Source: Shigella phage Shfl1
DNA: 50,661 nucleotides
Direction: 5' to 3' (one strand)
Sequence record: HM035024
Shown: positions 1 through 49,548 of the stretch, one piece after another
Layout of the letters: each line of letters opens with the position of its first letter
Numbering within the stretch: position 1 is the first letter of the stretch
The notes under the pieces: generated by a model
What the model was told of the DNA's origin: nothing
Database searches by the model: none
What the model saw: the letters and a program-made list of their open reading frames with translations, nothing else
Translations under genes and position numbers: made by a program

Positions 1-46
1 AGAGGGAGGATCTGGTGTTACCCGGTTCGCCTGGTAGTCATCTCCA

Positions 47-66
47 TTTTTAGCAAAAAGTGCTAT
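47..66 (-). promoter_or_regulatory. conserved promoter-associated motif (reverse orientation), directed out of the window
   Basis: Reverse complement reads ATAGCACTTTTTGCTAAAAA. Confidence 0.4.
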
Positions 67-170
67 CGATTACACTTTAACTTGTCACGACTGTAATATT
101 TGTCTAGAATCGCCATTGTGACAAAATTACACACTGTGACGCCTCTAAATATACATATAGATATATGTAT

Positions 171-187
171 CTATATAATATATATAG
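171..187. repeat. 17-bp AT-rich palindromic element CTATATAATATATATAG (copy 1)
   Basis: Identical 17-mer also at 31230-31246. Confidence 0.85.
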
Positions 188-469
188 TGTTTTTTTTATT
201 TATATATATAGATAATTATATTGTAACAGCTGTGTATAGCTGTCTTACATTGTCTAGCGTACTGTTGGCATATTTCTATCTGCATGTTTATATATACAGT
301 ACTTTTTTGGGAGCTATATATTTCTATAGTGACTCTATACAGCTAGACAAATGTTACACGGCTTAAAATTGGCTCTCAGGCGTTGACGTATCTGCATTGC
401 GCTGTCACAATGGCAATTGTTGACACGTTATGACACCATTTACACACGAATAGACAAAGAGGTTATATT

Positions 470-985
470 ATGAGCAATACCAATCAGGAATTAAAAATCA
501 CCGACATGATTCGCCTAACCTGCGACGCAATGTATCGCGACAAGGGCATGAGTGAGTTCTCTTTCGTGGCTGATGATATGGCCCTGGAAGGCGCGCGATT
601 CTATTTCCGCAATCAGGATGTAAGCGATAGCGATCTTGAGTCTGCCGCTGCCGGATGGGTGGACCAGAACCAGGGGGAGGTAGAGAAGCGATTCAAGTCT
701 GCTTTCATCACTCCGATCATTACCAGGCACTTCTGCAAGTATGGCAAGGTAGCAAAGGTGAAGGTAGGCCGAAATGACGCAGCAATCACAATGATAACGG
801 TTATCGTTACAGACGAAGAGGTTCCTGTGAAGAAGCGCCGCAGTCGGAAAAAAGTTAGCCTGGCCGACTGCCTGGATTCTTTTGACGTTGATGTTAGTAA
901 GCTGGGCGATAGTGAACTGATGGTTCGTGATGTAAATGAGATCGTGCGCCAGATGAAAGCGCATATCGAAAAGTGCGGACTGTGA
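470..985 (+). CDS. hypothetical early protein (171 aa)
   Basis: Intact ORF; AGAGG-type RBS upstream of ATG; first gene after the AT-rich leader region; no recognisable catalytic motif. Confidence 0.55.
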   Translation: MSNTNQELKITDMIRLTCDAMYRDKGMSEFSFVADDMALEGARFYFRNQDVSDSDLESAAAGWVDQNQGEVEKRFKSAFITPIITRHFCKYGKVAKVKVGRNDAAITMITVIVTDEEVPVKKRRSRKKVSLADCLDSFDVDVSKLGDSELMVRDVNEIVRQMKAHIEKCGL

Positions 986-999
986 GCACTGAAAGGTAA

Positions 1000-1019
1000 A
1001 TAGCACTTTTTGTTAAAAC
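1000..1019 (+). promoter_or_regulatory. conserved motif ATAGCACTTTTTGTTAAAAC with TATAGT 18 nt downstream
   Basis: Motif, then 18-nt spacer, then TGgTATAGT (1038-1043) inside inverted repeat GGGATAAC/GTTATCCC. Confidence 0.5.
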
Positions 1020-1074
1020 CGGATCGGGATAACCTGGTATAGTTATCCCATCAACAACGAATGAGGAAACGAAG

Positions 1075-1269
1075 ATGGAAACGCAAATTGACGTAGTGGT
1101 TGTTCAGCGAGACTCAACTCATGAAAAGGGTCTGTTCAAGAAAGGAACCGAAATCACGATCGACCTTGAAGATATGGTTGCGTATCACTCGGGTCTTACC
1201 TGGAACGTAGTGCGCGTTGGTAGCGACTACAAACTCAAAGGCTTTAACACTTACTTTGCAGAGGCTTAA
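1075..1269 (+). CDS. hypothetical protein (64 aa)
   Basis: ORF preceded by conserved motif, -10-like hexamer and GAGGAA RBS. Confidence 0.5.
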   Translation: METQIDVVVVQRDSTHEKGLFKKGTEITIDLEDMVAYHSGLTWNVVRVGSDYKLKGFNTYFAEA

Positions 1270-1271
1270 TC

Positions 1272-1739
1272 ATGACGACCATTACCGTATTTCTGGCCAA
1301 AGATGAACTGGACGACGAAATGTCATTCTTCGCGTTCGAGCATAAAACCGGATCGCACTGGCACACGTACACTCATTACACGGTCATCGCAATTGAGGCT
1401 TACGACGGCGATTTCACTGACAAGCTGAGTAATTTTATTGAAGCGGTTAAGGCCAGTGATGGTTGCGAGTGGAAAGAAGATCACGAAGTTATGCGAATGT
1501 ATGAGATGATCAATCCGGTTCGCCTTGAGTCTTTCGAGCTGGATTCGAATGTTGGTATCAAGGTGAGAAAGTCGGGTGAGTTATTGCCAGGGATGCGTGT
1601 GCTGACTGGTTACTCAGGGCGTAAGGTATGGCGCACTGTATCCAAGATTCGCCAGCGATCGGCAACATGCTACAGCGTATTCTTTGAAGATGGCTGGAAT
1701 ATGCTTTCAGGCAGTGAAGTGAAGTATCTCACCAAATAG
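1272..1739 (+). CDS. hypothetical protein (155 aa)
   Basis: ORF tightly packed 2 nt after previous stop; same strand as early gene train. Confidence 0.55.
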   Translation: MTTITVFLAKDELDDEMSFFAFEHKTGSHWHTYTHYTVIAIEAYDGDFTDKLSNFIEAVKASDGCEWKEDHEVMRMYEMINPVRLESFELDSNVGIKVRKSGELLPGMRVLTGYSGRKVWRTVSKIRQRSATCYSVFFEDGWNMLSGSEVKYLTK

Positions 1740-1755
1740 CACGAACTGTTAAAAC
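1736..1755 (+). promoter_or_regulatory. conserved motif ATAGCACGAACTGTTAAAAC with TATAGT 18 nt downstream
   Basis: TGcTATAGT at 1774-1779. Confidence 0.5.
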
Positions 1756-1821
1756 AGGATCTGGGTATCTTGCTATAGTTACCACATTGAAACGCTTCGG
1801 GGCAAACCCAAAAGAAGGAAG

Positions 1822-1904
1822 CGGCAAACGTAGACCGGAGCCGCGCAAACCTCGAAGCAAATTGACTTGGGAAAACCCATTAGGAAGGAAGGGGCAAACG
1901 TAGA
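1822..1904 (+). repeat. direct repeat GGCAAACGTAGACCGGAGCC (two copies) in a long 5' leader
   Basis: Copies at 1822-1841 and 1885-1904, each preceded by GAAGGAAG-like purine tract. Confidence 0.8.
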
Positions 1905-1957
1905 CCGGAGCCTCGGAACCCCAGGTTAAAAATGATGTACCAATCAGAGGAATCACC

Positions 1958-2188
1958 ATGTCAATCGTCAAGAACCAGCAAGCCATCGATTCAACCAATA
2001 ACAACCGCTTTGCCATTTTCATCACGTCTATAGGTCGACGCTTTGCAGTCAAGGCCGTACCGGGCGGGTACAAAACATACATGGAAGATAACGGAAAGTG
2101 GGTGTGGTGCGAAAACCTTGCAAACTTCCTGGTATGGAACGCAGACCTCCAGGGCTTTGACGATATCAGCACTTTAATTGAGGAATAA
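1958..2188 (+). CDS. hypothetical protein (76 aa)
   Basis: ORF preceded by conserved leader ACCAATCAGAGGAAT. Confidence 0.5.
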   Translation: MSIVKNQQAIDSTNNNRFAIFITSIGRRFAVKAVPGGYKTYMEDNGKWVWCENLANFLVWNADLQGFDDISTLIEE

Positions 2189-2194
2189 ATAATC

Positions 2195-2422
2195 ATGCCA
2201 CATTACAGCAGCCTAACCAAACTGACCCGAGTCAACGGGCACATGATCCCGGCAAAATCCACTCACTACGCAATGGGCGCAAAACACGGAGTCTATTTCA
2301 AGTGGCGCGGTCAATGGAACTTCACGGCTGTGAACAATTTCTATATGCGCGTTCCTGGCGATGACCCGCAATCGGTAGTAGAGAACTCAATCGGCGACAA
2401 CAAGATCGAGGTGCTGAAATGA
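2195..2422 (+). CDS. hypothetical protein (75 aa)
   Basis: ORF with GAGGAA RBS 10 nt upstream. Confidence 0.5.
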   Translation: MPHYSSLTKLTRVNGHMIPAKSTHYAMGAKHGVYFKWRGQWNFTAVNNFYMRVPGDDPQSVVENSIGDNKIEVLK

Positions 2423-2529
2423 ACTTCAATACAATTGCATTATGGTCTGCCGTCTGGTTCTTCTGCATGGGTCACGCCATTGTTAGGATCGTAATCATGT
2501 TACTACTGTGTGCCGGAGCGTTCGAATGA
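2419..2529 (+). CDS. putative 36-aa hydrophobic peptide (MNFNTIALWSAVWFFCMGHAIVRIVIMLLLCAGAFE)
   Basis: ATGA start/stop overlaps at both ends link it to flanking genes; not in the ORF track (below 60 aa); hand translated. Confidence 0.25.
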   Translation: MNFNTIALWSAVWFFCMGHAIVRIVIMLLLCAGAFE

Positions 2530-2699
2530 TGCGCATTCTGATTTGCATGATGGCGGCAGTCGCCATAACTATCCTGGCTGTATCCGGTTGTGTGGAGGTA
2601 AAAGAGCGATGCCACGAAACCGGGAACCAGGTTACTACGTTCGTGATGGTCGGCAACGTATTGCTACCAATCACATCAAATGAGATCACTTGCGAATAG
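2526..2699 (+). CDS. small putative lipoprotein (57 aa precursor)
   Basis: N-terminal hydrophobic signal followed by lipobox-like LAVSGC; GGAG 10 nt upstream of internal ATG at 2526 (track ORF 2508..2699 trimmed). Confidence 0.45.
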   Translation: MMRILICMMAAVAITILAVSGCVEVKERCHETGNQVTTFVMVGNVLLPITSNEITCE

Positions 2700-2708
2700 G
2701 ATTTAACA

Positions 2709-2900
2709 ATGTCTGATTTTATGCACCAAATGATTGCAGTATTCAAAGGCAGTGATGATGAGGAGGTTAAAGAGTGCTTTAACGTTGACAAGTCTTATAA
2801 CGCGTCACTAACCAGCTTTGGTAATATCTCATTGCTTGATGATAATGGCGATCCCTGGATATTCGACGAAGACACTGATTGCTTCGAGATTAAAGAATAG
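2709..2900 (+). CDS. hypothetical acidic protein (63 aa)
   Basis: ORF with AGGA RBS; Asp/Glu-rich. Confidence 0.45.
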   Translation: MSDFMHQMIAVFKGSDDEEVKECFNVDKSYNASLTSFGNISLLDDNGDPWIFDEDTDCFEIKE

Positions 2901-2916
2901 CACTTTTTGTTAAAAC
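2897..2916 (+). promoter_or_regulatory. conserved motif ATAGCACTTTTTGTTAAAAC with TATAGT 18 nt downstream
   Basis: TATAGT 2935-2940 inside inverted repeat GGGGTT/AACCCC. Confidence 0.5.
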
Positions 2917-2970
2917 TCAATATCGGGGTTGCGATATAGTAACCCCATCAACAACGAACGAGGATTTATC

Positions 2971-3177
2971 ATGAAACTGCGGTGCATTGAATCAAATCAA
3001 ATTAACTACTCAGAAGGCTTCGAATATGTCGCTCAAATCGATAGCTTTACAAACAAAAACGGAGAGGTTATTGATGTGGTTCATGGAGTGTATACGTGGT
3101 TCTACTTTGACAAGAAAGCGCTAACAGCAACTAAGCGCAATGGTGATGTGGTGGCTAAATTTAAACGTGAACAATGA
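2971..3177 (+). CDS. hypothetical protein (68 aa)
   Basis: Start trimmed to ATG at 2971, preceded by CGAGGA RBS and conserved CATCAACAACGAA leader. Confidence 0.5.
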   Translation: MKLRCIESNQINYSEGFEYVAQIDSFTNKNGEVIDVVHGVYTWFYFDKKALTATKRNGDVVAKFKREQ

Positions 3178-3187
3178 GGACGATAGC

Positions 3188-3676
3188 ATGAAAATTAAAT
3201 TACTGAGCAATGGCGGTTACAAAGGCTTTACTCGCGATCTGGAAGCTGACCCTATCGTGGTTGACGCGGTGAAGCGTGATGATAGCTTGGGCGGCTACCG
3301 CGTTAAGGTTGACGACCTGGTTAAAGCTGGAGTGTACGATCTTGACTATGGGCTTTCGGTTAGCCCTGTATTTGGTCCGGCTGACTTCAACGAGAAAGAC
3401 GGAACGATGTTCTTCTTCGAATGGGAAGTCCTGGCAAATCCTAGACCGCGCAAGGTTCGACTTCTCAACAATGGCGGCTACCCGATGCGACCAGGTTATG
3501 AGAACCGCACGTTCCCGGTTATCGTGGACTTTACCGAAATCACTAACAACTTGGTCTACGTCAGCAATGAGCATCTCCAGGCTGTAGGATTCACTGGCGG
3601 TATGCATAAAGAGAGTTTGTGCTTCGTTCGCGAAGAAATGCCCGGTTACTATTCTGAGTGCGAGTTGGTTTACTAA
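3188..3676 (+). CDS. hypothetical protein with internal duplication (162 aa)
   Basis: Start trimmed to ATG 3188 (GAGGA RBS); two NGGY-containing repeats (LLSNGGYKGF / LLNNGGYPMR). Confidence 0.6.
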   Translation: MKIKLLSNGGYKGFTRDLEADPIVVDAVKRDDSLGGYRVKVDDLVKAGVYDLDYGLSVSPVFGPADFNEKDGTMFFFEWEVLANPRPRKVRLLNNGGYPMRPGYENRTFPVIVDFTEITNNLVYVSNEHLQAVGFTGGMHKESLCFVREEMPGYYSECELVY

Positions 3677-3693
3677 GCACGAATTGTTAAAAG
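3674..3693 (+). promoter_or_regulatory. conserved motif variant TAAGCACGAATTGTTAAAAG with TATAAT 18 nt downstream
   Basis: TGgTATAAT 3712-3717 inside inverted repeat GGGGATT/AATCCCC. Confidence 0.5.
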
Positions 3694-3747
3694 GGGATTC
3701 TGCCTGATTGGTATAATCCCCACATCAACCACTAAGAGGAAATCGAT

Positions 3748-4233
3748 ATGTTGAAATTAAACGAGATTAAATTCCCTGTAGTTTTTAACACTATTAGCTG
3801 CGGAAAAATAACCTGCCATAACAAAGATCGTGCAACAGATTCGTCATTCAATGAGTGTCATCCGTCTATTGTTGGCAATCTCATTGAACTTCATAACAAT
3901 CACAACCCCGATAACATCCCATCTCTTCCATATTATGTTGAGTATGCTGGTCCTGGTTGGAAGGCTGGTCGAGCAATCTTTCACTCGTCAAAGCCAGAAA
4001 TCAAGCTATCGCTACAGCGCACTCAGATCGAGAACATGCCATTGAGCGCAACGCTAAAAGGTATCCAGCTTGATAGCGAATCCTGGCTTGAAATCACCGC
4101 TACACCGAAAACTATTGAGGTACACGATGATGTGGTGATTCTCCTGTTGCATTACGGCGGCTTTAAGCACAAGACTGTATCAGGTGAAATAAGCATTAAG
4201 CGCGGAACGCTTGTACGCTACGAGGTGAAATAA
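3748..4233 (+). CDS. hypothetical protein (161 aa)
   Basis: ORF preceded by motif, TATAAT and AAGAGGAAA RBS. Confidence 0.6.
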   Translation: MLKLNEIKFPVVFNTISCGKITCHNKDRATDSSFNECHPSIVGNLIELHNNHNPDNIPSLPYYVEYAGPGWKAGRAIFHSSKPEIKLSLQRTQIENMPLSATLKGIQLDSESWLEITATPKTIEVHDDVVILLLHYGGFKHKTVSGEISIKRGTLVRYEVK

Positions 4234-4296
4234 TGAGCAACTGGTATAACGAACATGTAATGCAGTTTTACCGCAATCGCATCAAGAAAATTTTGA

Positions 4297-4316
4297 ACAG
4301 CACGAATTGCTAAACC
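4297..4316 (+). promoter_or_regulatory. conserved motif variant ACAGCACGAATTGCTAAACC with TATAGT 18 nt downstream
   Basis: TGaTATAGT 4335-4340 inside inverted repeat AAGGCCA/TGGCCTT. Confidence 0.5.
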
Positions 4317-4380
4317 TTCCGCAAGGCCATTTGATATAGTGGCCTTATTGAAGCACGGCAACCAATCAGAGGAATTAGCT

Positions 4381-4587
4381 ATGGCTACACGACTCACTCA
4401 GTGGCAGATTTACGACAAGGCATCACGCCTACGCGAATCACTTCGCGGATTGACAGCAAACGACAGAATGGAGATTATCGGGCACGCTTTGCACGAACTC
4501 ACGCCTCAGGACGTAACCTATCATTCATGCGGCAATAAATTCTGGAACGTAACATTCGAGGTAAAGAAAGATGAGCAAAACTCATAA
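4381..4587 (+). CDS. hypothetical protein (68 aa)
   Basis: Start trimmed to ATG 4381 after conserved leader CAACCAATCAGAGGAAT. Confidence 0.5.
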   Translation: MATRLTQWQIYDKASRLRESLRGLTANDRMEIIGHALHELTPQDVTYHSCGNKFWNVTFEVKKDEQNS

Positions 4588-4858
4588 GTTAAAAATTGCC
4601 CCGATCCATTTCATCGGTGTAATGAACGGCACAAAAACGGCAGAGTTCCGCATTAATGACCGCAACTTCCAGCCTGGCGATATCCTGGAGCTATGCGAGT
4701 TCGATCGGGGTGAGTTTACCAGGTGGGAAGTACATGCCAGGGTATCCGATGTTACAGACGTGACGCCATACATCAATAGCGGGTATGACGAGCAAGAATG
4801 CGACTTCACGCAATACGTGATGTTATCAATAAAACCTTACAGAAAGGTTAGACCATGA
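4571..4858 (+). CDS. ASCH-like (DUF3850-type) domain protein
   Basis: N-terminal pattern K-x-H-x-LKI-x-P-x-HF-x-GV-x-NG-x-KT-x-EFR-x-NDR-x-F-x-PGD matches the ASCH/DUF3850 signature from memory. Confidence 0.4.
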   Translation: MSKTHKLKIAPIHFIGVMNGTKTAEFRINDRNFQPGDILELCEFDRGEFTRWEVHARVSDVTDVTPYINSGYDEQECDFTQYVMLSIKPYRKVRP

Positions 4859-5493
4859 AATTTGAGTGCGTATCAAGTAGCGGATCTGGTTTCAAGTGGG
4901 GTAAGGTCTACGAAGGCGCTCGCGTCAATGACAATAGATTCGTCATCACGGATGAGCGCGGTAGAAATGTTAACGTTGTCCGGCGTCACGAATACCAGGA
5001 AATACTCCTTCCGTATGGCGGTAGCTCAAAATATATCTTCCATCGAATCGTGGATGGTGTTAAATTTAAAGACGTAATCGAAGCAATCAACCAACTGCAT
5101 AATAAAGAGGTCAAATTTATGAAATTCGAATGTATCAGTGATAACACCAAAAAATTTACCGTTGGCAAAATCTACGATGTGCCTACTGAGCACGCAAAGC
5201 ACACTGTAGCACTGACCGACGACACGGGCCGCCACCGCATTGCAACCGTAACGCACAACGGTGAAGGTCTTCGCTGGAATAGCGGCGGCACTAAATTCGC
5301 AACGTTCGGCAAGAAGCGCAAGCGTACTTTCTGCGTCAATGGCAAGGTTACAGCGAACAAGATCCACAACGTCAAGCCGTCAGAAGTTTACCGTAAGCCA
5401 GCGACGAAGTTTGAAGAGAAGGCAGATTTGTCTGGTCTGGCTATCGCTCTTGTTCTCCTTGTTGCTTCGATTTCGCTGCTGTTCATCATGTAA
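4855..5493 (+). CDS. membrane-anchored protein with tandem repeated domain (212 aa)
   Basis: Two copies of a KFEC(V/I)S...GK(V/I)Y module; C-terminal hydrophobic helix LSGLAIALVLLVASISLLFIM. Confidence 0.55.
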   Translation: MKFECVSSSGSGFKWGKVYEGARVNDNRFVITDERGRNVNVVRRHEYQEILLPYGGSSKYIFHRIVDGVKFKDVIEAINQLHNKEVKFMKFECISDNTKKFTVGKIYDVPTEHAKHTVALTDDTGRHRIATVTHNGEGLRWNSGGTKFATFGKKRKRTFCVNGKVTANKIHNVKPSEVYRKPATKFEEKADLSGLAIALVLLVASISLLFIM

Positions 5494-5500
5494 TGCTAAT

Positions 5501-5534
5501 GGGGAATCGGCTCTGAACGGTTCCCCTTTCTTTT
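5501..5534 (+). terminator. intrinsic terminator
   Basis: Hairpin GGGGAATCGG...CGGTTCCCC followed by TTTCTTTT. Confidence 0.5.
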
Positions 5535-5641
5535 GGAGAAAACACTATGCCAGACTTTTCTAACTGGAATAACGAGCCGCCATCATTTCAGGAGTTGCTA
5601 TTTTGCCTCCTGATCCTAACATTATCTCTTAAGGGTGTTTT

Positions 5642-5860
5642 ATGGCTACTATCATGACAGCAGAAGATGCAGCACACGATGCAGTGGAAGGGATGCGCCC
5701 AAATAGCTCCAGAATCGCCCACTACTACAAATCTGATGTGTCGGCAGTGCAATTGGTCCATGAAATTTTAAGGCTCCCACAAGTCGATTCAGCGCGCGTG
5801 GTGACGTGCTTAAAAAATTATTTTTGCATCACTATTAAAACGAATAGCACGAATTGCTAA
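5642..5860 (+). CDS. hypothetical protein (72 aa), doubtful
   Basis: ORF only; its 3' end runs through the conserved promoter motif at 5844. Confidence 0.25.
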   Translation: MATIMTAEDAAHDAVEGMRPNSSRIAHYYKSDVSAVQLVHEILRLPQVDSARVVTCLKNYFCITIKTNSTNC

Positions 5861-5863
5861 AAC
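5844..5863 (+). promoter_or_regulatory. conserved motif ATAGCACGAATTGCTAAAAC with TATGAT 18 nt downstream
   Basis: TATGAT 5882-5887 inside inverted repeat AGGGGAAT/ATTCCCCT. Confidence 0.5.
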
Positions 5864-5917
5864 CTATCAAGGGGAATGCGCTATGATTCCCCTACACCAA
5901 CAAACGAGGAATCACCA

Positions 5918-6364
5918 ATGAAACACTTAATTTGCATTGAAACGCCTAACGATGAATACACTCTTCACGGCATAGGAATGTTCAAAGGTCACTACATGAC
6001 AGCAAGTATTCATGATGCGCGTCTTTGCGATGGCGATCTGATGATTACGTCAAAAGAAGTAAATCCGTACATTATGCAGAATCTTGGCAATAACGAATAT
6101 ATGGCCTACGGCTGCAACGCCGTGTACAAGCATATCAAGATCCGCAAGCGTGTCGTGCGTGCATTCAAGAAGATTGCAATGAAATACTGGAAGATGAGCA
6201 AGAAGGACGCCGGACGCTGGGCGCGCAATGTTGCTGACTCGTACTTCTATCGTAACGGTGAGTCCTGCTACTTCCTGATCGATGAAATTATGGAAAACTA
6301 CGGTGGCGACTTCAGTCAGTGTAACTTTGACGATTGGGCTGACTATGAGATCAGTTGTTGGTGA
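5918..6364 (+). CDS. hypothetical protein (148 aa)
   Basis: Start trimmed to ATG 5918 after ACGAGGAA RBS and conserved leader. Confidence 0.55.
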   Translation: MKHLICIETPNDEYTLHGIGMFKGHYMTASIHDARLCDGDLMITSKEVNPYIMQNLGNNEYMAYGCNAVYKHIKIRKRVVRAFKKIAMKYWKMSKKDAGRWARNVADSYFYRNGESCYFLIDEIMENYGGDFSQCNFDDWADYEISCW

Positions 6365-6383
6365 TAGCACGAATTGCTAAAAC
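6364..6383 (+). promoter_or_regulatory. conserved motif ATAGCACGAATTGCTAAAAC with TAGAAT 18 nt downstream
   Basis: TGtTAGAAT 6402-6407 inside inverted repeat AAGGGCATT/AATGCCCTT. Confidence 0.5.
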
Positions 6384-6446
6384 TTGCTCAAGGGCATTTG
6401 TTAGAATGCCCTTCGTTGAGTTAAGCAACCAATCAGAGGAATCAAT

Positions 6447-6650
6447 ATGAAAACTATTACCGGAATGAGCAACGAAACGAGAACGCAGATCGTTAACATG
6501 CTAATCGGGATGGCTGACGATATTCAGAATAGCCATGTCGTTATTGATTCATGCAATCAGACTCGTGAGAGTAAATTTGAATCATCCGGCTACAAAATTG
6601 TTGAAGAAGAATTAACCATCAAAATCATTCGCGTACAGGAGAAAGCATAA
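6447..6650 (+). CDS. hypothetical protein (67 aa)
   Basis: ORF preceded by CAACCAATCAGAGGAAT leader. Confidence 0.5.
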   Translation: MKTITGMSNETRTQIVNMLIGMADDIQNSHVVIDSCNQTRESKFESSGYKIVEEELTIKIIRVQEKA

Positions 6651-7183
6651 TGGATAAAATCACAATTTGGGGTCAGACAATCAACCTGTTTCTCGGCACT
6701 TGCCGCGTGGCAATCTTTGACTTCGACGGAACACTGAGTGACGGCTCAAAACGTCTTCACCTGCTACCGACGAAAGATTTGCACTTGACGGAAAGCTGGT
6801 CTGAGTTTAACAGGGCGGCAATATTTGATAACCCAATCCATAGTACGATTGAAGTGATGAACTCTATGCATGCCTCTGGTCATTATGTGATCATTTTAAC
6901 TGGGCGAAGTGATGAGGTGCGTTACGAATCTGAGTTATGGCTTAAGCATCACGGCGCTCGATATGATTACTTAGTCATGAGGCCGCATACCGACAACCGC
7001 AAAGACACGGTAATGAAAGAAGAGGCTGTGCGCGCGATCGGCATTGATAACATTCTGGCGGCTTGGGATGACTCACCGCAAATTATTCCATTATTCCGTT
7101 CGCTTGGAATAACTACGTATGCTGTAGTTGACTATGGCGATAACGTTCACGATCATTTAAAATATCACGGGGTGGATGAATGA
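6650..7183 (+). CDS. HAD-superfamily phosphatase (polynucleotide 3'-phosphatase-like)
   Basis: HAD motif I FDFDGTLSDG (DxDGT); later motifs IILTGRS and AAWDDSP; resembles the T4 Pnk phosphatase domain. Confidence 0.6.
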   Translation: MDKITIWGQTINLFLGTCRVAIFDFDGTLSDGSKRLHLLPTKDLHLTESWSEFNRAAIFDNPIHSTIEVMNSMHASGHYVIILTGRSDEVRYESELWLKHHGARYDYLVMRPHTDNRKDTVMKEEAVRAIGIDNILAAWDDSPQIIPLFRSLGITTYAVVDYGDNVHDHLKYHGVDE

Positions 7184-7290
7184 ACCTATACGAATTTATT
7201 GCAGCGCATCCGGTATTGACGGTTATCATCCTGTTAATCATCAATCACACTATCATCAATGTGGCAAAATTATTTTTAGGGAGATGCTAA
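7180..7290 (+). CDS. putative 36-aa hydrophobic peptide (MNLYEFIAAHPVLTVIILLIINHTIINVAKLFLGRC)
   Basis: ATGA overlap with upstream stop; hand translated; below ORF-track size cutoff. Confidence 0.25.
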   Translation: MNLYEFIAAHPVLTVIILLIINHTIINVAKLFLGRC

Positions 7291-7291
7291 C

Positions 7292-7864
7292 ATGAAAACA
7301 GCTATCATTTTAAACGGCGCACCTGGATCTGGAAAAGACACTATCGGATGTATCCTGGCTGACACTTACGATCACGTAGCCTTGCGCAGCTTCAAAGCGC
7401 CAATGTTTGAGATTGCCCGGGCAATCCTGGGTGAAGCTAACTACGAGTATTTCATGTTCTTATATGAGGACCGTCGATATAAAGAAGAGCCAGCATCAAT
7501 CCTGAACGGTAAAAGCCCACGCCAGTTTATGATCTGGATTAGCGAGGAAGTCATCAAGCCGCAGTTCGGAAATCGCTTCTTCGGTATGCGAGCGGAAAGC
7601 AAAGTGAAAGAGTCGCACTCCCTTTCGGTATTTACTGACGGTGGATTCAAAGACGAAATCTTGCAGATGATTGAAGGTGATATCCAGGTCAAGCTATGTC
7701 GAATACATCGCAACGGCTGCAACTTCGATAATGACAGTCGAGACTATATCTACCTGGATGATATGATCGGTGTCAACGGTTATCAAGAATGTGACTTCTT
7801 CTCTGTCGAAGGTCATCCAGAAATTACCGCTCATCACATAGCCGCCACATTCATCAATAAATAG
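7292..7864 (+). CDS. P-loop nucleotide kinase (dNMP-kinase-like or polynucleotide-kinase-like)
   Basis: N-terminal Walker A ILNGAPGSGKDT, as in T4 gp1 dNMP kinase and Pnk kinase domains. Confidence 0.55.
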   Translation: MKTAIILNGAPGSGKDTIGCILADTYDHVALRSFKAPMFEIARAILGEANYEYFMFLYEDRRYKEEPASILNGKSPRQFMIWISEEVIKPQFGNRFFGMRAESKVKESHSLSVFTDGGFKDEILQMIEGDIQVKLCRIHRNGCNFDNDSRDYIYLDDMIGVNGYQECDFFSVEGHPEITAHHIAATFINK

Positions 7865-7880
7865 CACGAATTGCTAAAGC
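7861..7880 (+). promoter_or_regulatory. conserved motif ATAGCACGAATTGCTAAAGC with TATAGT 18 nt downstream
   Basis: TGaTATAGT 7899-7904. Confidence 0.5.
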
Positions 7881-7936
7881 GTCGATGGGGTGATTTGATA
7901 TAGTTACCTCATCGACAACGAATAGAGAAAATCGAA

Positions 7937-8146
7937 ATGATGGTATCAACTGATAAGTTTTTTACTTGCACTAAAACTTCCGAGGTATTCGAACTGGTTC
8001 ATACTGACAACGGTGATTTCATGCATGACGGTTGCGACGTTTTCATTGAAGTGAAAGAAAGCGACTATGACGAAGGAGTTTATTACAACCCGGCAGTTAA
8101 CACGCAGTTTTTTACCCCGATCGAGGAAGATGGAGAAGAGGCATGA
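7937..8146 (+). CDS. hypothetical acidic protein (69 aa)
   Basis: ORF; about 17 Asp/Glu against 3 Lys. Confidence 0.5.
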   Translation: MMVSTDKFFTCTKTSEVFELVHTDNGDFMHDGCDVFIEVKESDYDEGVYYNPAVNTQFFTPIEEDGEEA

Positions 8147-8487
8147 TTACGATTAACCTGTCAGAGAAGCAAGCTCGTGAAATCCTGGATACGATCGGCG
8201 ACCAGTTACACATCAAAGGCGCTACCGCCGAACTTCTTAACCAGATCGAAAGGCAGCTTACCCCAGCATCAACGAATCAATCTGAGTTTGCGACCTGGAA
8301 GAGCGAGCGCATCTTGCCAAATATCATCAATGCATGGAAGCGCAAGCATAAAAAAGAAATCAACGTTGAGGATTTATTTACCGATGAATTAAGTCCTTCA
8401 AAGGTTGCTCAATATCAGTTGCGATACATGGAATCAGTTTGCAATCAGGTTTTAGGTGCTAATTTTTCATTTGGGAGAGGTAAATAA
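8143..8487 (+). CDS. hypothetical protein (114 aa)
   Basis: ORF; ATGA overlap with previous gene. Confidence 0.5.
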   Translation: MITINLSEKQAREILDTIGDQLHIKGATAELLNQIERQLTPASTNQSEFATWKSERILPNIINAWKRKHKKEINVEDLFTDELSPSKVAQYQLRYMESVCNQVLGANFSFGRGK

Positions 8488-8717
8488 TGTTCGGTTTAAG
8501 TGAAGCAGAATGGAACGTGGTAAAGCGCGCGGCGAAGGAATTAAATAAATTCGTCAGTGGCATGAAAAAAGAAGATCGGAAAAACGACAAAATCATGATT
8601 GACGTTATTTCTGCTCACCACAAAAAGGTCGAATTACTCATCGATCGCTACAAATTTGTCTGGACTGCCGGGTATATTGCCGGGCGCGTAGGTAACAAAG
8701 AAGGGGATTACGAATAA
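8487..8717 (+). CDS. hypothetical protein (76 aa)
   Basis: ORF; overlapping stop/start with neighbours. Confidence 0.5.
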   Translation: MFGLSEAEWNVVKRAAKELNKFVSGMKKEDRKNDKIMIDVISAHHKKVELLIDRYKFVWTAGYIAGRVGNKEGDYE

Positions 8718-8920
8718 TGGCTAATTTACCAAAGAAAGGCGATCAGGTTCGATGCGTAACGTCACGCAGTGGCGATGCTTTCTCTGCTGGCTGCTCTTAC
8801 GATGTGGAAAAGATTAGTAAAGCAAAGAGACTTGTGTATGTGTACGGCGACGATGGAAACTTGCATGAGATTGATTACCCGCAGGATATGACTAAGGGTC
8901 AATTTGAAATTAATGATTGA
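8717..8920 (+). CDS. hypothetical protein (67 aa)
   Basis: ORF; overlapping stop/start. Confidence 0.5.
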   Translation: MANLPKKGDQVRCVTSRSGDAFSAGCSYDVEKISKAKRLVYVYGDDGNLHEIDYPQDMTKGQFEIND

Positions 8921-9085
8921 CCTGAATCCCTGAGCGGTGATAGTATTAATCCCGTAGACATACGAGGCGCAATGAGTCGCAACGCGTGAGACGATTCTCA
9001 CCATTCCAGCTAACAAGCTCGGTTGCATAGTGGTTAAGCAACGCCGCAGACCCGTAAGCGGCAACAATTCAAGAGGATTGCATAA

Positions 9086-9247
9086 TGCAAAACAATAAAG
9101 ACGAATCAGTAAAAATTGAAATTAAAGTAACTCGCAACGGTGAAACCACTCGTTATAAAAAGCGATTAAATCCTGGCGAGGCTGTTATTGGTCGCATTGC
9201 TGGCGTTATGATTAAGGCGCAGGAAGATGAAGCGATTCAAAGTTAAA
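9086..9247 (+). CDS. small hypothetical protein (53 aa, MQNNKDESVKIEIKVTRNGETTRYKKRLNPGEAVIGRIAGVMIKAQEDEAIQS)
   Basis: Hand translated; AAGAGGA RBS 7 nt upstream; below ORF-track cutoff. Confidence 0.35.
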
Positions 9248-9413
9248 TTAATTATTCGAAAGATGGGAATGTTTTGCCAGTCGTGCAAACAATCTTTCGA
9301 AACAGAATTATCTGCAACCAGTCAGGCAGAAGCCATCACGAAAGCGAAGAAACTTTCAGGCGCTAATCTTGACACTCACAAAATAAACATTGAATTAATC
9401 AAGGAGATTTAAC

Positions 9414-9641
9414 ATGACCATTTTTTTATTGATTATCGCTGGTATCGTTATTTTTGGTGCTGGTTTGCTTGCTGGATTCGTACTTGTGGCGGCAGCAATT
9501 GCGATGGACGCGAAGGATAAAACTGGTGTGTGGCTGACCTACTCACCTAAGAAGGACCAGTGGGAAATGACTGGCGACCTTGCTCACTGCTACTCTAAAG
9601 CTCAGACCCACCCAAAAGGCATTAAACGACGATTATCATGA
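9414..9641 (+). CDS. small membrane protein (75 aa)
   Basis: N-terminal transmembrane helix FLLIIAGIVIFGAGLLAGFVLVAAAIA; GGAG RBS; followed by an intrinsic terminator. Confidence 0.5.
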   Translation: MTIFLLIIAGIVIFGAGLLAGFVLVAAAIAMDAKDKTGVWLTYSPKKDQWEMTGDLAHCYSKAQTHPKGIKRRLS

Positions 9642-9650
9642 TAAATACTA

Positions 9651-9673
9651 ACCCGCTTCGGCGGGTTTTTTTA
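9651..9673 (+). terminator. intrinsic terminator
   Basis: ACCCGCTTCGGCGGGT followed by T7. Confidence 0.7.
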
Positions 9674-9691
9674 TGTCTGCAATATGGTAAA

Positions 9692-9710
9692 ATAGCACTA
9701 AATGTTAAAC
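9692..9710 (+). promoter_or_regulatory. conserved motif variant ATAGCACTAAATGTTAAAC upstream of small terminase
   Basis: Motif directly followed by GAGAGGA RBS region; no hairpin. Confidence 0.35.
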
Positions 9711-9725
9711 AGAGAGGATGGATTT

Positions 9726-16429: not shown

Positions 16430-16447
16430 TTTAACAAAAAGTGCTAT
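16430..16447 (-). promoter_or_regulatory. conserved motif, reverse orientation, adjacent to terminator
   Basis: Plus strand reads TTTAACAAAAAGTGCTAT. Confidence 0.3.
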
Positions 16448-20194: not shown

Positions 20195-20213
20195 TTTTAA
20201 CAAAAAGTGCTAT
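20195..20213 (-). promoter_or_regulatory. conserved motif, reverse orientation, upstream of tail assembly chaperone
   Basis: Plus strand reads TTTTAACAAAAAGTGCTAT, directly followed by CAACCAATCAGGAGAAC leader. Confidence 0.3.
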
Positions 20214-35673: not shown

Positions 35674-35715
35674 ATAGCACGAATTGCTAAACAATGATTT
35701 TATCATTGTGCTATC
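35674..35715. promoter_or_regulatory. inverted pair of motif copies between tail fibre start and primase stop
   Basis: ATAGCACGAATTGCTAAAC followed by AATGATTTTATCATTGTGCTAT. Confidence 0.35.
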
Positions 35716-37214: not shown

Positions 37215-37235
37215 GTAGCACTTTTTGCTAAAAAC
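37215..37235 (+). promoter_or_regulatory. conserved motif GTAGCACTTTTTGCTAAAAAC upstream of helicase, divergent from HTH regulator gene
   Basis: TATTAT about 18 nt downstream (37253-37258). Confidence 0.45.
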
Positions 37236-39315: not shown

Positions 39316-39728
39316 TTACAGACAAAGGAGATTACTTAGAGTTTTACGAGCGAGATCCCAGCGACACTCGAAAGGAGGACGCGCACCAGGTAGATTGCGT
39401 GTCCTGGCTGAAATACAATTTCCCACACCTTCTATTTTGGCACACTGTCAATGAAGGTGAAAAAACAATCACTTCAGCACTCAGGGATGAGCAGGCTGGA
39501 TTACTTAAAGGCGTGTCAGACTTCGTTATCCTGATTGGTGTAAACTCACGCCACCCGTTCGCAGCTATCGAACTCAAACGGGTTAATAAGTCCGGCAAAG
39601 GAAAGGCATCACCAGTCAGCGATAAGCAAAAGGAATTTCTCCGTAAGGTTCGCGAACGCGGTGGATTCTCTGCGGTGGCTTACGGATTTGAGCAATTCAA
39701 GATCGCAATTTACGAAATGATGAAATAG
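39312..39728 (+). CDS. VRR-NUC domain nuclease
   Basis: PD-(D/E)XK-type core VSDFVILIG ... AAIELKRVNKSG ... SDKQKEFL typical of VRR-NUC. Confidence 0.55.
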   Translation: MITDKGDYLEFYERDPSDTRKEDAHQVDCVSWLKYNFPHLLFWHTVNEGEKTITSALRDEQAGLLKGVSDFVILIGVNSRHPFAAIELKRVNKSGKGKASPVSDKQKEFLRKVRERGGFSAVAYGFEQFKIAIYEMMK

Positions 39729-39744
39729 CACTTTTTGTTAAAAC
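39725..39744 (+). promoter_or_regulatory. conserved motif ATAGCACTTTTTGTTAAAAC upstream of Dam methylase
   Basis: TGgCATTAT 18 nt downstream (39763-39768). Confidence 0.45.
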
Positions 39745-39795
39745 TGCCGGAATGGAATCTGGCATTATTATTTCACCAAAACGAGAGGACTAAAA

Positions 39796-40509: not shown

Positions 40510-40757
40510 TGAACGAGAAAATGATTCAGGTTAAGTTAACTGATCAAGGTTTATGGCTGCTTTATCGAGCTACGTGCTGCGAAATTATGGAGCGAAACGG
40601 ATTGACTCAGGATGTTATTGGTTGCGATCTGTGGGAGTTCACTAGTTCTCTTGATATGTCTTTCGATGAGATAAAAAATGAATATATCGAGAATTGGCCT
40701 TCAATTATCCAGAAGGACGTAGATGAACTTAAAGCAGATACGATCGTACAGCACTAA
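40506..40757 (+). CDS. hypothetical protein (83 aa)
   Basis: ATGA overlap with Dam stop; start trimmed to 40506. Confidence 0.45.
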   Translation: MMNEKMIQVKLTDQGLWLLYRATCCEIMERNGLTQDVIGCDLWEFTSSLDMSFDEIKNEYIENWPSIIQKDVDELKADTIVQH

Positions 40758-40767
40758 TTGCTAAAAA
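40748..40767 (+). promoter_or_regulatory. conserved motif variant ACAGCACTAATTGCTAAAAA with TATAGT 18 nt downstream
   Basis: TATAGT 40786-40791 after inverted repeat CCCGGCGAAAGTCGGG. Confidence 0.45.
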
Positions 40768-40823
40768 TACCCGGCGAAAGTCGGGTATAGTTATTTCATC
40801 GATACGAAATGAGGAATCAAAAG

Positions 40824-41593: not shown

Positions 41594-42745
41594 ATGTCAC
41601 AAGCTAAAATCACCACCGAGCAACTTATTGAAGAGCGCATGAGCGGCCTAACACTTCGCGAAATCGCGGAAAAATACGGTATGCACATTCGCACTGTTGA
41701 AGCGCGCCATGCCAAGCTGGCAAAAGAAGGTCATTTTCACGGTAACGAGCATGTTGCTAAAAACGTGCCCGAGGGATTCATGGTAAAAGGCACGTCGACG
41801 ATGATTCGCGGCGATGGGACCGAGGTAGTGCGCTGGGTAAAAACCGATCAGGACCGTGAGAAGATTGCGGCAATGATGGAGGCGGCGCGCATTGCATTCT
41901 GTGAAGACCTGCCGCGAGCAAAGCCAACCGAGCTACTAACCTCGCAAGGGATTACGACAGCGATGGGTAAGCTGGCACTCTATCCGGTATTCGACCTGCA
42001 CATTGGTGCGCTTGCTCACAAGCATGAATGCGGAGAGAACTACTCTACCGACGTAGCCGAAAAAGTGCTTGTCGACTTCTTCAATTACGCGATCGATATT
42101 GCCCCGAACGCAGAGAAAGCTGTTCTGTTAATCGGCGGTGACTTCCTTCACTCGGACGGCCTTGATGCTGTTACCCCGGCAAGCGGTCACGTTCTGGATC
42201 AGGATTCACGATACGCAAAATTGGTGCATGTTGCGATCCGTTCGGTGCGTCGCGCTATCGACAAAATGCTTATGAAACACAAAGAAGTCGAGGTTCAGAT
42301 TATTGAAGGGAACCACGACCAGGCCGGGATGATTTGGCTACGTGCTGCAATGTCGGCATATTATGAAGACGAGCCGCGAGTATTCGTTGACGTTAGCCCT
42401 ATGATTCTGCATAAGACTCGATGGGGAAACACCTTATTGGGATACACTCACGGGCACACTATGAAAAAGGCAGACACGCGACTTGCAGCGATGGCGGCAG
42501 ACTTCCGTGCAGACTTCGGAGAGAGCAAGTATGTGTATACTCATAGCGGTCACTGGCATCATCAGACAATCACTGAACACTCGTTAGGTATCGATGAGGT
42601 TCACGGTCAGTTAGGAGCGAAGGATGCATACGCCGCGCGCGGCGGGTGGCGCTCATATCGTCAGGCGGCGGTAATCGTTTACGATAAACAGTTTGGGGAA
42701 ATCGGTCGGTTCATCTATCGTCCAGAAATGACAGGATCGCACTAA
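41594..42745 (+). CDS. calcineurin-like metallophosphoesterase with N-terminal HTH-like segment
   Basis: Metallophosphatase motifs FDLHIG (DxH), GGDFLHSDG (GD...), EGNHDQ (GNHD/E), HSGHWHH; N-terminal LTLREIAEKYGMHIRTVEARHAKL. Confidence 0.55.
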   Translation: MSQAKITTEQLIEERMSGLTLREIAEKYGMHIRTVEARHAKLAKEGHFHGNEHVAKNVPEGFMVKGTSTMIRGDGTEVVRWVKTDQDREKIAAMMEAARIAFCEDLPRAKPTELLTSQGITTAMGKLALYPVFDLHIGALAHKHECGENYSTDVAEKVLVDFFNYAIDIAPNAEKAVLLIGGDFLHSDGLDAVTPASGHVLDQDSRYAKLVHVAIRSVRRAIDKMLMKHKEVEVQIIEGNHDQAGMIWLRAAMSAYYEDEPRVFVDVSPMILHKTRWGNTLLGYTHGHTMKKADTRLAAMAADFRADFGESKYVYTHSGHWHHQTITEHSLGIDEVHGQLGAKDAYAARGGWRSYRQAAVIVYDKQFGEIGRFIYRPEMTGSH

Positions 42746-42756
42746 TTGATAAAAAC
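42737..42756 (+). promoter_or_regulatory. conserved motif variant TCGCACTAATTGATAAAAAC with TATAGT 17 nt downstream
   Basis: TATAGT 42774-42779 after inverted repeat CCCGAAGGGATTCGGG. Confidence 0.4.
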
Positions 42757-42810
42757 GCCCGAAGGGATTCGGGTATAGTAACCACATCAAAAACAAAGAG
42801 GCTACATATC

Positions 42811-46313: not shown

Positions 46314-46368
46314 CACAATAAACTCCTTAGTTGACGGTGTGAATGATACACCGCCAATGTTACACGCG

Positions 46369-46386
46369 TTTTGCAAAAAGTGCTAT
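46369..46386 (-). promoter_or_regulatory. conserved motif (minus orientation) upstream of P-loop ATPase gene
   Basis: Reverse complement ATAGCACTTTTTGCAAAA; hairpin GGTGT...ACACC with TATCAT downstream. Confidence 0.45.
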
Positions 46387-46806: not shown

Positions 46807-46868
46807 TGCGTTAACTCCTGATTGGTTATCTTGAATAAGGTCACTTTATCAAATGACCTTACGGCAAT

Positions 46869-46886
46869 ATTAACAAATCGTGCTAT
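46869..46886 (-). promoter_or_regulatory. conserved motif (minus orientation)
   Basis: Reverse complement ATAGCACGATTTGTTAAT; followed by inverted repeat AAGGTCA/TGACCTT. Confidence 0.45.
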
Positions 46887-47324: not shown

Positions 47325-47383
47325 TTTTAATTCCTTTGTTTCGTTTGGTGTGGGAGTAATATACCTTACTCCCTATTTATTGT

Positions 47384-47402
47384 CTTTAGCAATTAGTGCT
47401 AT
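47384..47402 (-). promoter_or_regulatory. conserved motif (minus orientation)
   Basis: Reverse complement ATAGCACTAATTGCTAAAG; followed by inverted repeat GGGAGTAA/TTACTCCC with TATATT. Confidence 0.45.
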
Positions 47403-48443: not shown

Positions 48444-48500
48444 AATTATTTCCTCGTTTACTGTTGATGGGATGACTATACCATCCACCCCATTTATGCG

Positions 48501-48518
48501 TTTAACAAAAAGTGCTAT
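48501..48518 (-). promoter_or_regulatory. conserved motif (minus orientation)
   Basis: Reverse complement ATAGCACTTTTTGTTAAA; TATAGT (plus 48475-48480) within inverted repeat GGATGG/CCATCC. Confidence 0.45.
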
Positions 48519-49056: not shown

Positions 49057-49123
49057 CTCGTCATTCCTCTGATTGGTTGATGTGTTAAATATACCCCGAT
49101 TACCTTCGGGGCGTTTAGCAATT

Positions 49124-49141
49124 CGTGCTATTAAGCGATAT
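49124..49141 (-). promoter_or_regulatory. conserved motif (minus orientation)
   Basis: Reverse complement ATAGCACGAATTGCTAAA; hairpin CCCCGAAGGTAATCGGGG then TATATT. Confidence 0.45.
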
Positions 49142-49466: not shown

Positions 49467-49529
49467 TTTCCTGCCCCTGATGTGTATCTCGTTTCGATGA
49501 GGTAATTATGCCAAATCACACCGATCGAG

Positions 49530-49548
49530 TTTTAACAAAAAGTGCTAT
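49530..49548 (-). promoter_or_regulatory. conserved motif (minus orientation) overlapping 3' end of methyltransferase-like gene
   Basis: Reverse complement ATAGCACTTTTTGTTAAAA. Confidence 0.4.

Follow-up and report, generated by a model that had tools for sequence, protein, structure and literature searches.

The T4-like myoviruses RB49/phi1, PST and nt-1 carry promoter-early stem-loops, or PeSLs (Arbiol et al. 2010, PMC2839356; Comeau et al. 2014, PMC4122927). One PeSL stem-loop cut the activity of a lacZ reporter as strongly as the rrnB T1 terminator did (PMC2839356). The PeSL cassette ends in a Shine-Dalgarno sequence and a start codon, flanks ORFans, and mediates indels (PMC2839356, PMC4122927). 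A cassette of comparable build occurs in Shigella phage Shfl1 (sequence record HM035024), whose sequence of 50,661 nucleotides (nt), analysed over its whole length and referred to below as the window, is a complete T1-like genome (Drexlerviridae, genus Tunavirus). In this cassette, a repeated 21-nt motif is accompanied by an apparent extended -10 promoter and by a hairpin that differs from copy to copy. The structure of the hairpin, not its sequence, is under selection, and the pairing is selected on the sense strand. The hairpin probably acts as RNA in read-through transcripts, where, placed at the 3' end of the upstream cistron, it would serve as an attenuator and/or as a barrier to exonucleases.

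The likeness between the two systems extends to several details. Like the PeSL, the T1-like cassette combines a repeated promoter with a stem-loop of variable sequence, located between the upstream promoter element and the -10 hexamer or overlapping the latter. Both have a G-rich 5' arm, a C-rich 3' arm and a Shine-Dalgarno sequence at the 3' end, and both flank small genes of unknown function and are found at the junctions of indels or replacements. The T1-like cassette, in contrast, resides in siphoviruses of an unrelated family, it has no sequence homology to the PeSL, its motif is unrelated to the PeSL consensus promoters, and most of its stems are without a U-rich tail. It also has the 21-nt upstream motif and the look of an extended -10 promoter, with no canonically spaced -35 hexamer. 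Terminator and promoter activity, as well as mini-circles, belong to the PeSL side of this comparison, the T1-like cassette being known here from its sequence. The T1-like cassette is thus an analogue of the PeSL and not a homologue. By this analogy, a second phage family appears to have arrived independently at the use of a promoter plus an upstream-transcript hairpin as a portable joint. In the literature searched, PeSLs were described for T4-like phages only, and the T1-like repeat was described without a hairpin or a -10 hexamer.

The motif AGCACNNNNTGYTAAA is present in 22 copies with at most one mismatch in the window, against 0.56 expected; about three further, degenerate copies are found at 42738, 41082 and 50505. 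It corresponds to a 21-nt direct repeat, aaATAGCACnnnTTGnTAAAA, already published for T1-like phages. A 2024 reannotation of phage TLS treats the function of this repeat as an open question and offers a stoperator, an enhancer or an UP-element as ideas (PMC11447400). Motif, orientation and location, some 76 nt 5' of start codons, are identical in TLS and in the cassettes. The available part of that report gives the repeat only, without mention of a -10 hexamer at fixed offset or of a hairpin, and counts just three sigma70-like promoters in TLS (PMC11447400).

Cassettes of related phages were collected by scanning viral contigs for one variant of the motif and by a second scan around the polynucleotide kinase gene, which together yielded 192 T1-like loci. 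A set of 368 unique cassettes, anchored on the motif, and an enlarged set of 823 unique cassettes were used. Alignment of the 368 cassettes revealed a -10 hexamer exactly 20 nt past the motif, at offsets 20-25, in which A-11 and T-7 carry 1.4 bit each. Positions 1-18 after the motif carry 0-0.3 bit and form a spacer free of sequence constraint. A G at -14 (1.0 bit) is found in 89 % of the cassettes and TG in 46 %. The discriminator after the -10 hexamer is variable and is followed by a conserved CA at offsets 31-32, where the start site is expected. The TTGYTA inside the motif is located 22 nt from the -10 hexamer (e.g., 1010-1043), and no -35 hexamer is present at 16-18 nt. We take the cassettes for promoters of the extended -10 type that have a 21-nt element upstream, as their conserved positions suggest; this element might need a factor. 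Such a cassette comes after every small early gene. From 5' to 3', it consists of a stop codon, the 21-nt motif, the spacer of 18-20 nt, the extended -10, a C-rich discriminator with the putative +1, an A/C-rich leader, a Shine-Dalgarno sequence and ATG. Its length is about 75-80 nt, with GAGGA and ATG approximately 60-75 nt after the start of the motif. In most cases the upstream stop codon is in the motif or directly 5' of it; the TAG of TAGCAC is used in 168 of 300. A standard sigma70 promoter scan did not call the cassette sites, and published annotations of T1-like phages have missed these promoters. Conserved A/C-rich leader boxes are present past the predicted start (1050-1075, 2947-2972, 4347-4380 and equivalents). 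The two main types, ATCAACAACGAA-GAGGA and (G)CAACCAATCAGAGGA, may be translation enhancers or processing sites.

The 42 nt following each of the 22 motif copies fold with a mean RNA minimum free energy (MFE) of -11.6 kcal/mol, compared to -5.7 for random genomic 42-mers. Against dinucleotide shuffles the mean z-score of the 22 copies is -2.5, with p<=0.03 in 13 of them, while in the 368 related cassettes the mean is -2.8 and z<-2 is reached in 68 %. In the enlarged set, a helix beyond the 95th percentile of shuffles is present in 444 of the 823 cassettes, which gives 277 different hairpins. When stretches of 76 nt were folded, the same hairpin was retained in the centroid structure. Stems are 6-11 bp and loops 4-15 nt long, mostly 4-10 nt, the longest stem in the window being the 15 bp of the cassette at 7863. 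The 5' arm is G-rich (469 G vs 240 C) and the 3' arm is C-rich (443 C vs 242 G). An earlier, sequence-only reading of the window had listed such inverted repeats on both strands; these are present to within 1-3 nt, and the excess of complementarity over shuffled controls holds in the window and in both sets of related cassettes. No matches at the gathering score were obtained with Rfam over the whole window.

That this complementarity is maintained by selection was apparent from a comparison, along minimum spanning trees, of closely related hairpin alleles in front of the same downstream gene. Substitutions amounted to 0.037 per site in stems versus 0.075 at unpaired positions outside the hexamer. 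Single transitions in stems left the pairing intact through G·U 34 times and broke it nine times, and 11 of the 12 pairs that had changed on both sides were still paired. Covariation was followed in a widespread family with arms AAGGNCA/TGNCCTT, which includes the window copies at 4299 and 46869. Its 20 distinct sequences (alignment A1) were chosen on flanks and left-arm features only, the right arm being free to vary. Partners were paired in 95.8 % of the cells, as opposed to 33-54 % when they were slid by 1-3 columns. The covariation score was 0.26 vs 0.106 in shuffles, and none of 500 shuffles reached it. One pair was seen as CG, GC, GU, UG, AU and UA, i.e., as all six standard types. The proposal in the sequence-only reading that the arms differ between copies but remain complementary, structure rather than sequence being selected, is thereby borne out; in the 823 cassettes of related phages, too, the arms diverge in sequence while compensatory changes keep them paired.

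The strand on which pairing matters was deduced from interior mismatches. A helix search that ignores the type of mismatch is a valid test of strand, whereas MFE folding adds wobble pairs freely. Pair types counted on MFE structures were alike on both strands (G·U 348 vs 314), and this count was replaced by the type-blind search. Interior mismatches in 144 hairpins comprised 33 G·T, one A·C and six others; in the 277 hairpins these numbers were 58, 3 and 19. Shuffled sequences gave 59 G·T and 104 A·C (Fisher p=6.5e-12). The mismatched hairpins are spread over some 25 unrelated families. Every sense-strand G·T corresponds to an A·C on the complementary strand, and selection for pairing therefore operates on the sense strand alone. 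The bias tracks the direction of transcription: in the minus-strand cluster it is found on the minus strand. Sense RNA was more stable than antisense RNA in 243 cassettes, with the reverse in 118. In the window, sense and antisense MFE were -23.0 and -12.8 kcal/mol for the cassette at 7863, -14.8 and -9.6 for that at 40750, -10.5 and -6.9 for 48467..48516 (-), and -10.3 and -5.6 for 49494..49546 (-). As single-stranded DNA, the window hairpins reach only -4 to -8.5 kcal/mol.

The predicted start is just past the 3' arm, so the hairpin would be present in RNA only if transcription comes from upstream. The window copies directly after a co-directional gene fold significantly in 13 of 16 cases, the other copies in none of six (Fisher p=0.0011). 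The latter are the copies at 49 (-) and 37217 in divergent regions, those at 16430 (-), 20196 (-) and 35676 in antisense position, and the one at 9694 after a canonical terminator. In related phages the mean z was -3.17 where the upstream open frame had at least 50 codons (n=300) and -1.38 where it had fewer than 30 (n=46). Orthologue clusters behaved alike, with a mean z of -3.04 with an upstream open reading frame (ORF; 230 clusters) and -0.92 without one (30 clusters; p=2e-6). Orthologues of the helicase-block promoter and of the copy before terS mostly lack the hairpin. The statement in the sequence-only reading that nearly every motif-bearing promoter has the repeat is therefore too strong, as these six copies are without a significant hairpin and a seventh, at 1738, has decayed. 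The cassettes of the window, followed by the control copies, are as follows.

1002..1049 (+): motif 1002-1017; arms GGGATAAC 1026-1033 and GTTATCCC 1042-1049; TGn and -10 TATAGT 1038-1043 in loop/3' arm; predicted +1 at about 1050; MFE -13.2, p 0.027
1738..1783 (+): decayed hairpin GGTATCT/AGTTACC, z 0.07; relatives have an intact GGGGTATCT/AGTTACCCC
2899..2946 (+): motif 2899-2914; arms GGGGTT 2925-2930 and AACCCC 2941-2946; -10 TATAGT 2935-2940 in the loop; z -4.8
3676..3721 (+): arms GGGGATT 3693-3699 and AATCCCC 3715-3721; -10 TATAAT 3712-3717 overlapping the 3' arm; z -4.0
4299..4346 (+): arms AAGGCCA 4323-4329 and TGGCCTT 4340-4346; -10 TATAGT 4335-4340; covarying family of alignment A1; z -4.6
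5846..5893 (+): arms AGGGGAAT 5870-5877 and ATTCCCCT 5886-5893; -10 TATGAT 5882-5887; z -3.3
6366..6413 (+): arms AAGGGCATT 6390-6398 and AATGCCCTT 6405-6413; -10 TAGAAT 6402-6407; z -4.8
7863..7916 (+): 15-bp RNA stem in 7881-7916 with two G·U pairs; -10 TATAGT 7899-7904 in the loop; z -7.0
39727..39764 (+): arms TGCCGGA 39745-39751 and TCTGGCA 39758-39764; class I, ends at the -10; p 0.017
40750..40788 (+): class I hairpin 40767-40788 (arms 40767-40773 and 40782-40788) with GAAA loop and one G·U, then TATAGTTATTT; z -3.6
42738..42773 (+): degenerate motif with two mismatches; class I, arms CCCGAA 42758-42763 and TTCGGG 42768-42773, then TATAGT
46331..46384 (-): arms 46348-46357 and 46331-46340; -10 TATCAT 46343-46348; z -3.0
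46836..46884 (-): arms TAAGGTCA 46854-46861 and TGACCTTA 46836-46843; family of the cassette at 4299, with T-A at the variable position; z -5.6
47352..47400 (-): arms GGGAGTAA 47366-47373 and TTACTCCC 47352-47359; z -4.0
48467..48516 (-): arms ATGGGGTG 48486-48493 and CATCCCAT 48467-48474, one G·U; -10 TATAGT 48475-48480
49094..49129 (-): class I, arms CCCCGA 49106-49111 and TCGGGG 49094-49099, then TATATT 49088-49093; p 0.01
49494..49546 (-): hairpin with G·U inside 49494-49528
9694..9709 (+): control copy immediately 5' of the terS ribosome-binding site, with neither -10 nor hairpin; a canonical terminator lies ahead of it at 9650-9667
37217..37232 (+): control copy without a co-directional gene upstream, in a divergent region, where it is the first helicase-block promoter; no significant hairpin
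16430..16445 (-): control copy antisense to late genes; no hairpin
20196..20211 (-): control copy antisense to late genes; no hairpin
35676..35691 (+): control copy with a minus-strand gene on either side; its AT-rich repeat is weak and falls short of significance
49..64 (-): control copy at a divergent region, where it is the first on the minus strand; no significant hairpin

In the copy before terS, the small terminase gene, 5 nt separate the motif from the Shine-Dalgarno sequence, an arrangement kept in 14 related phages. Because this conserved copy has neither a -10 hexamer nor a hairpin, the motif may have a role independent of the promoter part. The copies 16430-16445 (-), 20196-20211 (-) and 35676-35691 (+) point against the surrounding gene blocks and are possible antisense promoters. 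The inverted copy at 20196 directly adjoins the ATCAACCAATCAGGA leader box of the next plus-strand late gene.

The hairpin does not occupy a fixed place with respect to the promoter. Its 3' end peaks at offset 31, i.e., at -1, and its distance from the motif varies from 0 to 14 nt. Paired offsets sum to 39 in 141 hairpins, to 41 in 52, to 23 in 48 and to 30 in 22. Covariation calculated at fixed register over all paralogous cassettes was weak, with a paired fraction of 0.56 at i+j=39 and of about 0.42 elsewhere and with mutual information at the null level; this signal indicates that there is no fixed geometry, and tests with free register and tests based on orthologues were used instead. A variable register argues against a geometric role in the promoter. 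The hairpins had been described as engulfing the -10 hexamer, and 187 of the 277 unique hairpins (approximately 68 %) do enclose or overlap it and end near +1, while 74 (approximately 27 %) are wholly in the spacer and end at the hexamer. Engulfment is common but not universal, and the variable register gives no support to its being a designed feature. The gap between stop and start codon is about 75 nt, and its only unconstrained positions are the spacer and the discriminator. A hairpin in this gap consequently either uses both, with the -10 in its loop, or fits inside the spacer. We regard the overlap with the -10 as a consequence of packing.

The cassettes are also junctions of gene shuffling. 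In different phages, one and the same downstream gene is preceded by entirely different hairpins. Out of 300 upstream gene clusters, 74 connect via a cassette to two or more downstream clusters; in the reverse direction this holds for 70 of 294. In pairs with conflicting sides, the hairpin allele goes with the upstream gene in 35 % of cases and with the downstream gene in 27.5 %, which means that exchange happens on both sides of the hairpin. Alignment with six close relatives gave 31 gaps, 19 of which have a break between -30 and +90 relative to a motif start. An enrichment of the endpoints of high-scoring segment pairs over all distant loci was modest (13.9 % vs 8.1 % of the sequence); as divergence inside genes adds endpoints, the gap analysis was used in its place. 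The gene at 5911-6364 is absent, together with one cassette, from phage pSf-2. Both breakpoints are inside the cassettes at 5846 and 6366, and pSf-2 retains one chimeric cassette in place of the two. This is a cassette-to-cassette indel of the PeSL type.

The RNA role proposed in the sequence-only reading agrees with these results. G·T mismatches far outnumber A·C, the sense strand folds better, and the hairpin is present mostly where a co-directional gene ends at the motif. It begins approximately 17-24 nt past the upstream stop codon. Transcripts reading through from the upstream gene would fold the G-rich/C-rich hairpin past this stop codon, while the transcript of the cassette itself would begin just after the 3' arm. 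The hairpin would mark the 3' end of the upstream transcription unit, attenuate or terminate read-through and/or block 3'->5' exonucleases after processing, and thereby insulate each gene module. With the spacer and the discriminator as the sole free positions in a short gap, the -10 would come to lie in the loop or the 3' arm, and the conserved flanks would make the cassettes recombination joints for gene shuffling. Canonical sigma70-like promoters are located at 82-110, 150-179, 293-322 and 441-469 (e.g., TTGTCA-17-TAGAAT), in the divergent region before the first plus-strand gene; this cluster is a likely source of the read-through transcripts that would carry the hairpins.

Two classes of RNA element offer themselves for comparison. 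Intrinsic terminators are, like the cassette hairpins, GC-rich, occur shortly after a stop codon, are found on the sense RNA and tolerate G·U; some cassettes even have GNRA or UUCG loops. Annotators of relatives, among them those of phage SA30RD, label these hairpins in GenBank as rho-independent terminators on the basis of WebGeSTer and sometimes TransTermHP, and papers on T1-like genomes count 18-21 such terminators (PMC4070988). Intrinsic terminators have a U-tract and most cassette hairpins do not. Hairpins enclosing the -10 have a mean of 1.4 T in the 8-nt tail, with at least five T in 7 %; for the spacer class these values are 3.1 and 20 %, and hexamers of the TATTAT type may double as a weak U-tract in that class. 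A terminator scan of positions 1-10000 called no cassette hairpin. The canonical intrinsic terminator was rejected, as the GC-rich hairpin is present and the U-tract, in most copies, is not.

The other class consists of intercistronic hairpins that stabilise a 3' end, such as repetitive extragenic palindromic (REP)-type elements and the RNase III-processed intergenic hairpins of T7. Both these and the cassette hairpins are without a U-tract and are located on the 3' side of a cistron in polycistronic RNA, where they could block PNPase or RNase II. RNase III substrates comprise about two helical turns, or approximately 20 bp, of double-stranded RNA. The stems of the cassettes (at most 15 bp in the window) are far below this size, which speaks against the RNase III processing suggested in the sequence-only reading, and overlap with a promoter is a feature of the cassettes alone. 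Pairing of the U-run of the motif with the downstream Shine-Dalgarno sequence in read-through RNA was also considered and was dismissed as compositional, duplex energies being -5.64 and, for shuffled leaders, -5.81.

Several points weigh against an attenuator or exonuclease barrier in read-through RNA. As most hairpins have no U-tract, whereas canonical U-tract terminators are present elsewhere in the genome (5501-5526, 9650-9667), efficient intrinsic termination is doubtful. From 20 to 40 % of the copies without a long upstream frame fold well nonetheless. The related phages do not yield fully independent counts, although tests at the level of clusters and of families agree. The start site, the 3' ends of the transcripts and any termination are what we infer from the sequence, and no transcript mapping of T1 was found in the literature searched. 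Moreover, the G·T bias would equally suit a hairpin in the sense (non-template) strand of DNA.

The last point leads to the view that the hairpin is a DNA element of the promoter, a cruciform or a non-template-strand hairpin between motif and +1 that tunes binding or melting by RNA polymerase; in a variant of it, the hairpin brings TTGYTA into range of the -10 despite their distance of 22 nt. Such a role would accord with the rigid spacing of motif, 20 nt and -10, with TTGYTA at a non-canonical distance and with the accumulation of stem 3' ends at -1, and mismatches alone cannot tell sense-strand DNA from RNA. A symmetric cruciform, which the sequence-only reading had also put forward, is rejected because both strands must pair in it, so that no bias between G·T and A·C is predicted and 58 vs 3 should not be seen; it also calls for long arms and a short loop, unlike the short stems observed here, which have loops of up to 10-15 nt and are weak as single-stranded DNA. 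A hairpin in sense-strand DNA is disfavoured by its dependence on context and not by mismatches. A role intrinsic to the promoter would require the hairpin at copies without an upstream gene too, and yet the first-in-operon and antisense copies keep the motif (and the -10 where present) without it. The variable register, with a quarter of the hairpins wholly upstream of the -10, is difficult to reconcile with such tuning as well. DNA hairpins do act at the promoters of the N4 virion RNA polymerase, where they have stems of 5-7 bp, 3-nt loops and conserved bases and need the phage RNA polymerase. In both cases the hairpin is at a promoter and the stem sequence can vary; the cassette hairpins differ in their loops of 4-15 nt and in a pattern of selection that follows upstream transcription. 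Neither an RNA polymerase nor a sigma factor is encoded by published T1-like genomes (PMC11447400). Taken together, a DNA element is very improbable. A chance or compositional effect of GC-rich spacers around an AT-rich -10 may be practically dismissed: the single copies at 1738, 48501 and 49531 are not significant individually, but dinucleotide shuffles, genome background, slid-partner controls and compensatory changes all reject it.

Somewhat more is to be said for a recombination device that targets exchange between cassettes, with effects on transcripts being secondary. It would explain why cassettes are mosaic junctions whose alleles segregate with either neighbour, and why a gene indel runs from cassette to cassette; PeSL crossovers have been mapped in or near the loop (PMC2839356). 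Exchange driven by homology needs conserved flanks and not a variable stem, and neither the tolerance of G·T on the sense strand nor the dependence on an upstream gene is predicted by it, for which reasons we think it unlikely that recombination is the main function. A nut-like signal, in which the 21-nt motif resembles boxA and the hairpin boxB and the nascent RNA recruits a factor that modifies RNA polymerase (antitermination or processive control), would place a linear conserved element and a following hairpin both on the sense RNA of read-through transcripts, and would give the motif the function that is acknowledged as open in the available part of the TLS report (PMC11447400). Stems and loops that differ between copies in one genome and a motif distance of 0-14 nt do not fit such a signal, nor does the occurrence of the motif without a hairpin, before terS and in the antisense copies; no candidate factor was identified, and we hold a nut-like role to be quite unlikely. 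It is also conceivable, though improbable in our opinion, that overlap with the -10 is functional and not accidental and that the cassette works as a 'terminate-and-reinitiate' module. The read-through polymerase would then be held in a sigma70-dependent pause a few nt past +1, brought about by the -10 in the loop or 3' arm. During this pause the upstream RNA would be released by a hairpin that has no U-tract, and the polymerase, still on the next promoter, would be poised to start again. If true, transcript end and transcript start of successive genes would be coupled.

In T1-like phages, which are common in the laboratory and relevant for therapy, the signals for transcription are poorly understood. 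Reading the repeat, the extended -10 at fixed offset and the sense hairpin as one unit would bear on the question of what the 21-nt repeat does. It would assign some 20 promoters and transcript boundaries per genome and would explain why 'terminators' and repeats coincide in the GenBank records of these phages. In practice, it would help to improve annotation and, in phage engineering, to design insulated gene modules.

A megablast search with 900-8000 retrieved 316 phage records at 80-99 % identity, with the Shigella and Escherichia phages phi2457T, Sfin-1, SA30RD and SH6 at the top. After the annotated relative phi2457T, the plus strand up to about 9.4 kb contains small hypothetical genes, followed by the terminase and late genes, also on the plus strand, up to about 29.6 kb, by mixed replication and lysis blocks, and, from about 44 kb onward to the end of the genome, by small genes in a minus-strand block. 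The genes flanked by cassettes are annotated as hypothetical proteins in relatives.

The cassette at 1738 is followed by a 218-nt non-coding gap (1787-1957) that has no ORF of more than 38 amino acids and contains a 70-nt tandem duplication, the two copies of which (units 1799-1851 and 1869-1921) are 79 % identical. This gap is absent from phi2457T and pSf-2. It is found in few T1-like phages, mostly unannotated: ULIM2 (96.8 %) and ECO104 have it, and it is partial in FSL SP-126, F20 and Solomon. It may represent a small RNA or a mobile insert.

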